A stretch of DNA of 64,000 nt. Origin: Methanobacteriota archaeon (GTDB taxonomy: Archaea > Thermoplasmatota > Thermoplasmata > SG8-5 > DAIRED01). A program made the position numbers and the translations under genes. The stretch is from contig JAZDNO010000009.1 of the NCBI GenBank assembly GCA_043799545.1, positions 1 through 64,000 on the forward strand, given 5' to 3'. The number at the start of each line of letters is the position of its first letter. Position 1 is the stretch's first letter. A model generated the notes under the pieces. The model saw only the letters and a program-made list of their open reading frames with translations. It did no database searches and was not told where the DNA came from. This document shows, piece after piece, positions 1,621 through 50,569 of the stretch.

Positions 1621-1874
1621 TTTGTATAGATGAGGGCGAGAATATGCTTGATTGTTCTTTTCTCGCCCTCACTTCGGTCTTGCTCCGCGCACTCTGCCCA
1701 GCAAGTCCTCGTTCAAATCTCATCTCCATAAAAAAATGAATGGGCCCTTTGTATAAATGAGGGCGAGAATATGCTTGATTGTTCTTTTCTCGCCCTCACT
1801 TCGGTCTTGCTCCGCACACTCTGCCCAGCAAGTCCTCGTTCAAATCTCATCTCCATAAAAAAATGAATGGGCCC
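1621..1874. repeat. Two tandem 127-bp units ending in the tRNA-Ile 3' terminus
   Basis: 1621-1747 vs 1748-1874 have 2 mismatches; each unit has a 12-bp hairpin TGAGGGCGAGAA/TTCTCGCCCTCA and an inverted tRNA T-arm copy GTTCAAATCTCATC. Confidence 0.95.
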
Positions 1875-1942
1875 GATGAGATTTGAACTCATGACCTCCC
1901 GGTTATCAGCCGGGCGCTCCAACCGAGCTAAGCTACGGGCCC
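1868..1942 (-). tRNA. tRNA-Ile (GAT), CCA not encoded
   Basis: Acceptor GGGCCCG/CGGGCCC plus discriminator A; anticodon arm CCCGG-CTGATAA-CCGGG; T-loop TTCAAAT. Confidence 0.97.
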
Positions 1943-18632: not shown

Positions 18633-18741
18633 GCCGAGGTGGCTCAGCCCGGTAAGGCGCGAGCCTGGAATCTCCCGCTTCGGCGGGAGGCTGAGAGCTC
18701 GTGGGGGCAACCCCTCGGGAGTTCAAATCTCCCCCTCGGCG
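18633..18741 (+). tRNA. tRNA-Ser (GGA) with 25-nt intron (18671-18695)
   Basis: GCCGAGG/CCTCGGC plus G discriminator, CGAGC/GCTCG anticodon stem, long variable arm, intron at 37/38. Confidence 0.93.
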
Positions 18742-19758: not shown

Positions 19759-19828
19759 GTGTTCACCTTACACACCGAAATCGCGTGCTGTTTTAAAAGG
19801 GTATCGTTGGATTCCCCGCCGATTTTCT

Positions 19829-19908
19829 TCAGTATTCTGTCCAACGAGAGGGCAATTGCTCAGCACCTCTCTCGAATGGAGTATCAATCTCTCAGTATTC
19901 TCTCCAAC
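19829..19908 (-). repeat. 17-bp duplication of the TFS 3' end with foldback spacer
   Basis: TCAGTATTCTGTCCAAC 19829-19845 vs TCAGTATTCTCTCCAAC 19892-19908. Confidence 0.8.
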
Positions 19909-20188
19909 TAGCCTTGCACTTGCAGCACCTGAATATCTTCGTCTCGGGCTCGTCGGACTTTCTTGTCTGGCGCAGGGTGTAGAACGCCTCGTTGTGGCCG
20001 CATTTGGGGCACTCGGCGGGCATCCTCGGCAGGACATCCTCCACATCCTCTAGGACAACGATTTCATGCTCCTTGCAGGCGCGGAGCTCCCCCTTCTCCT
20101 CGGGTGGCTTGGCTTCGGTGTTGCACTTCTTGCAGACCCACCTGCCATTTTCCCTCGTCAGGAGGCACTTGCACTTCTCGCAGAACAT
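19892..20188 (-). CDS. tfs: Transcription factor S (TFS/RpoM)
   Basis: MFCEKC..C..C Zn ribbon; CPKCGH..QTRKSDEPET..C..C. Confidence 0.95.
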   Translation of the reverse strand: MFCEKCKCLLTRENGRWVCKKCNTEAKPPEEKGELRACKEHEIVVLEDVEDVLPRMPAECPKCGHNEAFYTLRQTRKSDEPETKIFRCCKCKASWREY

Positions 20189-20278
20189 GCCCCGTCCATC
20201 ATGGGATAGGGATATAACTTTTTCGGGGGCGCGTGCAAACGTTATAATACGACGGCGGTGCTTACTGGTATGAGAAAC

Positions 20279-35231: not shown

Positions 35232-35870
35232 TTACAGACCGAAGGCCCATATCTCCATACTTGTCGGAAGGTCTTCCGCCTCGAACTCAATCTCGCTCCC
35301 GACCTCGCGCACTTCGACGCTCTCTGGATAGAGCTTCGTGAACTCCTTCAACGGCGCGATTGCCAGCTTCAGTCCGCCGAACTTGAAGTGCATCGGTATC
35401 GCAATCCTAGGACCGATCTTCGCGACAGTTTCCATGGCCCCCTTCGCATCCACTGTATACAATCCGCCGACTGGCACCATCAGGATGTCCACCCTGCCAA
35501 TATGCGCCACCTGCTCGCCCGTCGGGACGTGCCCGAGGTCGCCCATGTGCGCGAACCGGACGCCGTCCAACTCGAAGACGAAAGCGACGTTCTTACCGCG
35601 CTTGCTGCCTCCCATTTCGTCGTGGCAGGTTTCAACTCCGAGGATTCTCACTCCCTTCTCGTGGTGCTCCCCTGCGCCTTTGACGACTGCGGGCGTTCCC
35701 TTGACTGCAGAAACTGCGTTGTGGTCGTAGTGGTCGTGGCTCACTAGCACGACGTCTGGCGCGGTCCTCGGAGGCGTCAGCCCGATGGAATGCCCGTCGT
35801 GCGGGTCCGTTAGCACCTTGACCTTCCCCGAGACTTCGAAACACGAATGCCCGTGCCACTTCATCCTCAT
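35232..35870 (-). CDS. MBL-fold metallo-hydrolase
   Basis: WHGHSCF, SHDHYDH, HMGDLGH and IPMH motifs. Confidence 0.92.
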   Translation of the reverse strand: MRMKWHGHSCFEVSGKVKVLTDPHDGHSIGLTPPRTAPDVVLVSHDHYDHNAVSAVKGTPAVVKGAGEHHEKGVRILGVETCHDEMGGSKRGKNVAFVFELDGVRFAHMGDLGHVPTGEQVAHIGRVDILMVPVGGLYTVDAKGAMETVAKIGPRIAIPMHFKFGGLKLAIAPLKEFTKLYPESVEVREVGSEIEFEAEDLPTSMEIWAFGL

Positions 35871-35945
35871 CGCTTGCTCCCCCGACGGTGAATCGGCTTC
35901 TCCGTATTTAATTTGTGCTGATTAATCGATGACGCTTGGCGGTCG

Positions 35946-36039
35946 CGAGCCAGTCAATCATTCGCTGATGACCCACCGAGTCAATTGCCAGCATTCGGTG
36001 TGGCTCGAAAGGGTCAATCGCCTTATTCGCTGATGACCC
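35946..36039 (-). repeat. 15-bp duplication of the RAD55-like gene 3' end with foldback spacer
   Basis: ATTCGCTGATGACCC at 35960-35974 and 36025-36039; inverted CGAGCCA/TGGCTCG. Confidence 0.85.
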
Positions 36040-36724
36040 TCGTGGCCCTGAACACCCCGTCCTGGAACAACAGCGTGTAGTAGTTCGGGCTGTGCGTGGT
36101 CGAGCGCATCTTCACGCACCTGATTCGCCTGGTGACGTTCACATCGTCGACCTTCTCCATCTTCAAGTGGATTATACCGTCCGCCAGGAAGTCCTCGTCG
36201 TGGTTGGCGTACGTGTCTGAACCGGTCTTCATCTCCGAGATTATGAACGTGGTGACCTTCAATTCCCTCAGCCACTCGAAAAAGTGGAACAGCTCCGTCC
36301 GCGGGTTCTCGAACTCGGCGAGCATCTCCAGTATCGGCAGCGAGTCTATGACCAGAATCTTGTAATCGAGGCTCTCCTTGACGTTCTGAGCGTAGGTCTT
36401 GAATATCTGCATCCACGTCTGCTGGCCGAGCTTCTCCAGGTTCTTGCGGATGAGGGCCAGGTCGACTATGCTCACGCGCGACTCCACGTCCGCGGGGTCC
36501 ATCCCCATCGAGGCCATCTGCTGGCAGAGGCTGTCCCGACCCTGCTCAAGCGTGATGTAGACTCCGATGCGGTTCTCCTCCTTCGCGTTGTGAAAGAGAG
36601 TATAGAAGACTATGGAGGACTTCAGGGTTCCGGGCTCGCCCGCGACCAGGACTATGTTCCCCTCTGGAACGCCACCGGCCATCTTCTCGTCAAATCCCTG
36701 GATGTGAGTCGGGATGCGTATCAT
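36023..36724 (-). CDS. RAD55/KaiC-like ATPase (second paralog)
   Basis: GFDEKMAGGVP, GEPGTLKS, LVIDSL, DGIIHL and KMR motifs. Confidence 0.9.
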   Translation of the reverse strand: MIRIPTHIQGFDEKMAGGVPEGNIVLVAGEPGTLKSSIVFYTLFHNAKEENRIGVYITLEQGRDSLCQQMASMGMDPADVESRVSIVDLALIRKNLEKLGQQTWMQIFKTYAQNVKESLDYKILVIDSLPILEMLAEFENPRTELFHFFEWLRELKVTTFIISEMKTGSDTYANHDEDFLADGIIHLKMEKVDDVNVTRRIRCVKMRSTTHSPNYYTLLFQDGVFRATRVISE

Positions 36725-50245: not shown

Positions 50246-50454
50246 GCCGAGGTAACTAAGCCCGGTTTACGCCTGACGAGCAAGCTCGTCCGCGCCTCGT
50301 GGCTTCGCCACTTCGGAGGTGCCAGCCTGGCACTAAAACCTTTTATATGCCTAGGTAACTAAGCCCGGTTTACGCTGGACGAGCTGCGCTCGTCCGCGCC
50401 TCGTGGCTTCGCCACTTCGGAGGTGCCAGCTACTGGCACTAAAACCTTTGATAC
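50246..50454 (+). repeat. Two tandem 103/106-bp units made of interrupted tRNA-Ser(TGA) 5' halves
   Basis: tRNA nt 1-24, then a 47/48-nt hairpin insert, then AGGTGCCAGC, then inverted TGGCAC. Confidence 0.95.
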
Positions 50455-50569
50455 GCCGAGGTAACTAAGCCCGGTTTAAGGTGCCAGCCTTGAGTGCGCC
50501 AGAAAAAGAACTGGTGCCTGGCGAGCTGGTGGTGTCATCACCTCGGGAGTTCGAATCTCCCCCTCGGCG
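50455..50569 (+). tRNA. tRNA-Ser (TGA) with 29-nt intron (50495-50523)
   Basis: GCCGAGG/CCTCGGC plus G discriminator, CCAGC/GCTGG anticodon stem, long variable arm, intron at 37/38. Confidence 0.93.

Follow-up and report, generated by a model that had tools for sequence, protein, structure and literature searches.

The window (the whole 64-kb stretch of DNA analyzed here, contig C15) comes from a 2,059,121-base (2.06-Mb) assembly of 31 contigs with 58% G+C. On its minus strand, a gene encoding a KaiC/RAD55-like ATPase is followed by a gene for a metallo-beta-lactamase-fold (MBL) protein, the start of which, at 35870, lies 152 nt past the RAD55 stop (Table 1). The RAD55 gene closes with the codons ...AGG GTC ATC AGC GAA TAA, and the 15-mer that forms its native end, denoted X1, recurs in a second exact copy, X2, on the far side of a 50-nt insert, Y. 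X1 continues with AA, completing the TAA stop, and X2 continues with GA, giving TGA. The strings quoted in the preliminary description of this DNA were all found on the minus strand, and the duplication of the RAD55 gene end 65 nt downstream, which that description reported, is present as an exact 15-mer. The two exact matches in the window compare with 0.19 expected, and at least two matches anywhere in 64 kb were obtained in 2 of 100 shuffles; no third match with up to two mismatches was detected within the 64-kb window.

Minimum-free-energy folding predicts two hairpins at the RAD55 junction, one holding the stop codon in its loop (hairpin A) and one enclosing X2 (hairpin C); the fold of the whole 96-nt RAD55 segment has z = -1.63. 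Four RATTSAC motifs, separated by 33, 27, and 65 nt, run from the insert into the spacer beyond it. A cluster of this kind (at least three motifs within 150 nt) is unique in the genome, where the density is 0.024 per 150 nt, for a motif that was defined post hoc; it could represent an array of protein-binding sites or a remnant of successive local duplications. The AT-rich stretch in the remaining spacer, from its sequence, may be a promoter of the MBL-fold gene.

The same layout is found 16 kb away on the same strand, at the end of the gene for transcription factor S (TFS). Here, the last 16 nt of the gene, including the stop codon, are repeated with one mismatch on the other side of a 47-nt insert, with 63 nt between the starts of the two copies; the duplication of 15-17 bp previously proposed accordingly corresponds to 15 nt, exact, at RAD55 and to 16 nt with one mismatch at TFS. 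A DUF6159 gene comes next downstream of the TFS module. On the plus strand at 18633-18741, ~160 nt away from where the DUF6159 gene ends, Rfam recognizes a 109-nt tRNA (39.4 bits) that was missed by ARAGORN and presumably carries an intron. Two further repeat arrays lie elsewhere in the window. One, at 1617-1875 and right beside tRNA-Ile (1868-1942, minus strand), consists of adjoining direct repeats, 59 and 58 nt long and exact, with the copies of each spaced by 127 nt; it may have been left by integration or may be a simple tandem repeat. In the other, at 50250-50480, three tandem units of ~104-106 nt share stretches of 17-43 nt.

Table 1. Features of the RAD55 and TFS loci and related sites (window positions unless a contig is given)
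Feature	Position	Strand	Details
KaiC/RAD55-like ATPase gene, 263 aa	36026..36814	(-)	Pfam PF06745 KaiC, E 2.2e-41; stop TAA at 36025-36023
X1, native RAD55 gene end GGGTCATCAGCGAAT	36025..36039	(-)	Last 14 coding nt + T of TAA; exact 15-mer; same codons in the sister species G001 (...GTCATCAGCGAGTGA)
Y, 50-nt RAD55 insert AAGGCGATTGACCCTTTCGAGCCACACCGAATGCTGGCAATTGACTCGGT	35975..36024	(-)	Collinear alignment with TFS insert, z 4.95; missing at G001 RAD55
X2, exact second copy of GGGTCATCAGCGAAT	35960..35974	(-)	65 nt from X1; out of frame with the gene
Hairpin A	36009..36041	(-)	GAGGGTCA (36041-36034) pairs with TGACCCTT (36016-36009), stop codon in loop; minimum-free-energy fold; 7 Watson-Crick pairs
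Hairpin C	35951..35978	(-)	CGGT.GGTCAT pairs with ATGATT.ACTG, encloses X2; minimum-free-energy fold, prediction only
Four RATTSAC motifs	35888..36019	(-)	GATTGAC 36019, AATTGAC 35986, GATTGAC 35959, GATTCAC 35894
Remaining RAD55 spacer	35871..35959	(-)	Missing in G001; AT-rich TATA-like AAATTAAATA (35914-35905); GGGGGAG ahead of ATG
MBL-fold gene, 212 aa, next after RAD55	35235..35870	(-)	Pfam PF13483, E 1.1e-48
TFS gene	19895..20206	(-)	Pfam PF01096, E 8e-16; stop TGA at 19894-19892
TFS sister locus	19829..19907	(-)	X1 TTGGAGAGAATACTGA (19907-19892), 47-nt insert (19891-19845), X2 TTGGACAGAATACTGA (19844-19829)
TCCAA, 3' arm of hairpin enclosing TFS X2	19807..19811	(-)	Alignment positions 69-73 pair with 102-106
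HUH Y1 (IS200/IS605- or RAYT-type) transposase genes	C12:58590-58937, C25:29957-30301, C28:11566-11895; G001 C138:4651-4995		
~95-nt element sites	C8:7821, C10:209879, C11:3356/3432, C12:19593/94107, C22:103582/127169/129690, C23:31916, C24:4324/15553, C28:16370/57088, C29:41024/66191, C30:68741, C31:7902		

The inserts at the two loci are related in sequence. The blocks GATTGA, TTCGAG, TGCTG(A)GCAATTG, and CTCGKTGG occur in both in the same order, as the preliminary description had noted for a core running from GATTGA to CTC, and the three-part core GATTGA..TTCGAG..GCAATTG has two occurrences in the window (0 of 100 shuffles). The last of these blocks, CTCG(G/T)TGG, lies directly 5' of X2 in all three known copies of the insert, that is, the two described here and the orthologous TFS copy of the sister species. 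Global alignment of the RAD55 and TFS inserts gave z = 4.95, a score reached by 2 of 2,000 shuffles and by 1 of 5,000 random genomic 47-mers. As a look-elsewhere control, the 48 nt following the stop of each of 6,610 long open frames were ranked against each insert: the RAD55 segment came first of the 6,610 against the TFS insert, narrowly (13.5 versus 12.5), and in the reciprocal ranking TFS came second (12.5), below an unrelated segment (14.5). Given this narrow ranking, the likeness of the inserts is convincing only jointly with the shared layout.

The likeness is distributed in blocks. The longest stretch common to both inserts is at most 13 nt; the RAD55 and TFS inserts of this genome match in blocks (12 of 13 positions in the loop), and the stems between the blocks are unrelated. 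The shared loop is the very one that is not conserved between the two species at TFS, and the RAD55 insert aligned to the TFS insert of the sister species gave z = 0.4, against the 4.95 obtained within this genome. A simple recent copy would not show this pattern, since loop and stems alike would be shared, and if the likeness were a matter of structural convergence alone, neither the loop nor GATTGA would be in common.

For comparison, we used the sole other species of the genus (G001, here the sister species; genome completeness 84%, compared with 94% for this genome) and 20 further genomes of the order. The proposed genome-wide search for the core did recover a second site, namely TFS, and these two sites are the only ones in the 2,059,121 bases. 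The notion of an element family found little support, as there are only two copies in this genome and one orthologous copy in the sister species, and the order's 20 further genomes yielded none. The pattern GAWTGA..TTCGAG..CTCGKTGG likewise had no match in 22 genomes beyond the three known sites (and none at all for the reversed control), and looser two-part patterns gave only chance matches besides these three sites across this genome, the sister species, and 22 genomes of the order. An nhmmer profile of the three inserts recovered the known copies in this genome (E = 1.7e-10 and 4.2e-4), the next best match having E = 3.5. A metagenome scan with the downstream MBL-fold protein yielded 80 loci and no additional RAD55-MBL junction; the best locus, 74% identical, starts inside the MBL gene, and the remainder are at most 50% identical. 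The two-locus set, as far as these sequences go, is confined to one genus.

A scan of this genome for gene-end duplications identified five ORF ends with the last 14 nt repeated within 140 nt, two of which are RAD55 and TFS. The other three are a 77-nt tandem repeat, an apparent duplicated promoter, and a site of the ~95-nt element described below. The tandem duplication (C10:163894-164010) extends over the ORF end; at C2:29396-29490, an AT-rich 18-nt repeat with copies 77 nt apart resembles a duplicated promoter of a gene on the opposite strand. We also considered whether X1 and X2 could be the edges of a longer tandem duplication and rejected this, given that TRF returned no rows at either locus and that the sequence following X1 is not significantly similar to that following X2 (alignment z = 1.0, -0.95, and 1.8; scores reached by 105 of 1,000 and 808 of 1,000 shuffles).

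At the RAD55 locus, the sister species lacks both Y and X2. Its junction reads ...GTCATCAGCGAGTGA GGCGTCGG ATG..., with 8 nt between the RAD55 stop and the MBL start codon. The empty-site comparison envisaged earlier thus finds an empty site in the sister species, but the locus in this genome is longer by ~144 nt, not by 65; the extra sequence consists of Y, X2, and 79 further nucleotides that include the TATA-like stretch. GGCG, which follows the RAD55 stop in the sister species, matches the sequence following X1, not that following X2. An outgroup cannot settle gain versus loss, because the gene located 3' of RAD55 is another one in the more distant genomes.

At the TFS locus, the whole module (X1, Y, and X2) is present in the sister species with no gaps and, this being an independent assembly, the feature is real and not an artefact. 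The insert is missing from all 17 TFS orthologues of more distant genomes, and the DNA downstream of them is unrelated. Sixteen of these orthologues end in WREY before the stop, as in this genome, and one ends in WREN; orthologues that carry this ending and no insert indicate that X1 is the native gene end and that Y and X2 are a genus-specific addition.

The TFS module has been conserved beyond the neutral level. At four-fold degenerate sites of four flanking genes, the two species agree in 48% of cases (161/335). Across the locus, identity is 76% in the preceding coding sequence, 94% in X1, 70% in Y, and 69% in X2, all with 0 gap columns, and falls to 44% with 12 gap columns in the spacer past X2. 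With 70% identity and no indel against the neutral 48%, the TFS copy is probably constrained, and the module is probably under selection rather than a decaying scar. It includes an invariant 13-nt block, CTCCATTCGAGAG. In a three-hairpin model, with X1 in hairpin A, a central hairpin B, and X2 in hairpin C, the stems of hairpin B are conserved and its loop varies (TGCTGAGCAATTG versus CGTCGCTGACATG). The model pairs in 40 of 42 cells, compared with 36-62% for slid controls, and the two species differ by one double change from U-A to G-C (in the hairpin with the TCCAA arm) and by two one-sided compatible changes. This support is suggestive only, as it comes from two sequences and a model derived from the same two. 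Fold energies at the loci are unexceptional (z from -0.6 to -2.1).

The insert had been proposed to carry an arm complementary to its target. At RAD55, GATTGACCC does fold onto the gene end with 7 Watson-Crick pairs (AGGGTCA/TGACCCT), the TGA being part of the constant core; at TFS, the corresponding 5 bp are at chance level. Among 1,431 gene ends, 3.6% reach a stop-enclosing stem of 7 bp, compared with 3.2% of swapped controls; for a 5-bp stem, the share is 41% in both sets. Given that observed and control values agree, stop-enclosing hairpins were rejected as a general gene-end feature of this genome. The claim that the element targets stop codons fared similarly: both sites are indeed at gene ends, but there are only two independent ones, and this position could equally reflect survivorship, an insertion directly behind a stop codon doing no harm.

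The same genome contains an unrelated ~95-nt structured multi-copy element (GGYCGAGCGAGCAGG ... CAGCGAGRC ... GGGKTTG), which provides a precedent. Its 5' motif occurs at 19 sites, ~17 of which are apparently real copies, and a DNA search gave 12 matches in this genome and 22 in the sister species, with a sporadic distribution (hits in 13 of the 26 genomes searched). Between the two species, identity of the copies reaches 94%, suggesting that the element is mobile now or was so recently. In 6 of the ~17 copies, a stop codon (TAA, TAG, or TGA) is located directly at the 5' edge. Flanking duplications are clean in three cases (66, 43, and 38 nt) and ambiguous and non-adjacent in two (19 and 15 nt). 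One copy, in contig C31, lies between two 38-nt copies of the closing codons of a 444-codon frame: the first copy is followed by TGA and the element, and the second retains the original downstream context. At the equivalent site, the sister species has a single gene end (...KVG, TAA) and no element, a clean empty site. A tiny element that inserts with duplication of a gene end demonstrably occurs in this lineage. Like Y, the ~95-nt element is gene-less, forms hairpins, resides at or just past stops, and is flanked by a duplicated gene end; unlike Y, with which it shows no sequence likeness, it has 12 and 22 matches in the two species, compared with two copies and one, and its duplications span 38-66 rather than 15-16 nt.

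This filled and empty pair is the main reason for reading Y as an insertion too. Our leading, still tentative, interpretation is a small non-autonomous insertion with a 15-16-nt target duplication, the TFS copy of which has been retained as a gene-end hairpin module. Under this interpretation, Y would be a gene-less insert of ~47-50 nt that was integrated, in two genes, immediately after the final sense codon; it would arrive with duplication of 15-16 nt of target, so that X1 remains as the intact end of the gene and X2 follows as a surplus copy that is not translated. Of the two insertions, the one at TFS would be older, because it is common to both species of the genus, and the module would since have been kept by selection, most likely as RNA, in the form of a 3' flank with three hairpins that separates the stop codon from the next gene's promoter. 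Such a flank could set the 3' end, protect it, or insulate the upstream from the downstream gene. The RAD55 copy would be specific to the lineage of this species, separating genes that are still spaced by 8 nt in the sister species. Against insertion are the small number of copies, the lack of visible terminal inverted repeats and of a linked enzyme, an empty site that is not clean, the blockwise likeness of the inserts, the repetitive RAD55 spacer, and ordinary fold energies.

Some of these points would fit a patchwork generated by template switching or slippage, in which error-prone repair or replication copied short nearby stretches in both orientations and the RAD55 event used TFS as one of the templates. 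We regard this as possible, if rather unlikely. It is in keeping with the repetitive nature of the RAD55 spacer, the four RATTSAC motifs of which form the only such cluster in the genome, with the non-uniform resemblance between RAD55 and TFS, and with local 7-mer sharing: 7-mers shared between the RAD55 insert and its flanks (±300 nt) cover 34 nt compared with 18.8 ± 8.5, which 32 of 1,000 shuffles reach. Synthesis-dependent microhomology-mediated end joining (PMC2943611, PMC5728401) leaves direct and inverted copies of flanking DNA, and Y is similar in having neighbouring sequence repeated directly at its edge and an inverted copy that forms a hairpin; the pathway is documented in eukaryotes, which counts against it here. 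Templated end joining would also leave unexplained the blocks common to the two loci and the conservation at TFS. Local templating is not seen in the TFS insert (its value is reached by 620 of 1,000 shuffles), no stretch longer than 13 nt is common to the two inserts, and the patchwork does not account for the last 15-16 nt of a gene being duplicated twice, at spacings of 63 and 65 nt. When both spacers were searched for a donor (blastn-short against the genome), the first 60 of 100 matches listed, all of them for the RAD55 spacer, were only 12-16-mers with E of at least 0.07. The constraint on the TFS module, together with the placement of each gene-end copy in its own predicted hairpin, is compatible with a purpose-built cis-regulatory RNA that needs X2, which we consider unlikely. 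In an attenuator version of this scheme, the arm following GATTGA would pair with X1, or with X2 when a ribosome occupies the stop, and the choice would set the fate of the downstream hairpin and gene; indeed, the RAD55 arm TGACCC could pair equally with X1 and X2 (6 bp). At TFS, however, X2 has changed at the pairing positions (UGGAC in this genome and UGGCG in the sister species, versus the arm CUCCA), leaving 3-4 bp. Stop-enclosing hairpins are not general in this genome, no Rfam family matches (best E 1.6-7), and an exact 15-nt copy would still require a mechanism of duplication.

That two independent small duplications acquired inserts that are alike by chance seems improbable to us. The narrowness of the ranking among the 6,610 segments (13.5 versus 12.5, and 12.5 beaten by 14.5 in the reciprocal) would suit such a coincidence, and the whole window was available for finding a look-alike. 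Yet with ~5 duplicated ORF ends genome-wide, few pairs are available, the shared blocks are equally placed relative to the stop and to X2, and neither the two occurrences of the three-part core against none in 100 shuffles nor the restriction of the degenerate pattern to the three known sites would be expected. Translation of the module is the least credible reading and very unlikely: either read-through of the TFS UGA, producing a 21-residue extension that again ends in W-x-E-Y, or a small ORF starting at the TTG of GATTGA (ATG in the sister species). What speaks for it is that TFS X2 is in frame (63 nt) and that the frame is open between stops over 20 codons and free of indels in both species (EIDTPFERGAEQLPSRWTEY and GNESPFESGVADMLSRWREY), ending again in SRW(T/R)EY and a stop. 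Moreover, X2 differs from X1 in the sister species only by changes that are synonymous in this frame (TGG AGA GAA TAC versus TGG CGG GAG TAC), and GATTGA corresponds to GAATGA there, TTG and ATG both being start codons. The synonymous-looking pattern can also arise if the functional copy drifted synonymously while hairpin C held X2. Against translation, the frame at RAD55 closes at once (TAA GGC GAT TGA), and X2 lies in another frame. Among the 40 tRNAs, neither tRNA-Sec or tRNA-Pyl nor a suppressor was found, more of the long open frames end in TGA than in any other stop (1100 of 2023), the differences by codon position in the TFS frame (4/6/9) are not significant, and the frame of the small ORF has the fewest differences at codon position 3.

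Translational bypass was considered separately. Bypass signals, such as that of phage T4 gene 60 and the mitochondrial "byp" elements, consist of a ~50-nt gap bounded by matching sequences. The RAD55 and TFS loci share with them the gap size, the matching ends, the stop right after the first match, and a hairpin holding the stop. We rejected this possibility because the second match is itself directly followed by a stop, so that hopping would change nothing, and the RAD55 copies are out of frame. Among RNA families, Rfam at the gathering threshold identified only two tRNAs in the window. Archaeal box C/D sRNAs are recognized by their C (RUGAUGA) and D (CUGA) boxes and ~12-nt guides. The spacing between GATTGA and CUGA is 20-22 nt at the two loci, and this candidate was discarded, the best Rfam scores being 12-16 bits against gathering thresholds of 39-64 (E 1.6-7), on different strands at the two loci. 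Integron attC sites, dif-like sites, K-turns, and H/ACA boxes, assessed by eye, were also dismissed, as their motifs are not common to all three copies.

The cognate enzyme sought from the start did not emerge. Cas1 (PF01867) was found in neither this genome nor the sister species, the same search having matched 7 of 14 control genomes, and reverse transcriptase was likewise found in neither of the two. HUH Y1 transposase genes are present in both but unlinked to the insert, and the flanks of the two Y1 genes inspected contain neither Y nor the ~95-nt element. Downstream of the Y1 gene in contig C25, a 29-nt repeat occurs twice, at a spacing of 104 nt. By eye, no terminal inverted repeats were seen at the ends of either insert; ATTGAC recurs in direct, not inverted, orientation.

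Casposons, archaeal transposons that employ a Cas1 casposase, generate target duplications of 14-15 bp and insert at the 3' ends of tRNA or EF-2 genes. Y is similar to them in the size of the duplication and in its position at gene 3' ends, and differs in that no Cas1 was found in either genome, in the lack of visible inverted repeats, and in length, 50 nt compared with kilobases. For MITEs and REP-type repeats, the usual target duplication is 2-10 bp. Prokaryotic MITEs and REP/BIME repeats are, like Y, small, non-coding, hairpin-forming, and located in intergenic regions after genes, and Y1 genes occur in this genome; unlike them, Y has two copies, no inverted repeats seen, and a longer duplication. 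Measured against what defines a MITE (prokaryotic MITEs are the subject of a review, PMC10969869), Y has the duplication but few copies (two in this genome and one in the sister species), and the empty RAD55 site of the sister species comes with the ~144-nt difference. REP/RAYT repeats accompany a Y1 gene, an arrangement absent from the flanks of the two inspected. The literature listings returned no description of target duplications of this length for elements so small, and no enzyme is known for them.

More broadly, Y and the ~95-nt element could belong to an undescribed class of archaeal mini-insertions, with long and variable gene-end duplications (15-16 and 38-66 nt), arms re-templated on host codons, and the stop held in a hairpin, which could be co-opted as gene-end or insulator signals, as at TFS, the copy conserved between species. 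We consider such a class doubtful, distinctly more so than the insertion of Y itself. On present evidence, the finding is modest: it is real and rests on two genomes. If the insertion reading is true, the two copies, one old and constrained and one young, would offer a small and tractable case. The RAD55 locus would then illustrate how a pair of genes spaced by 8 nt, as in the sister species, can be split by ~150 nt of new spacer with hairpins and a promoter-like stretch.
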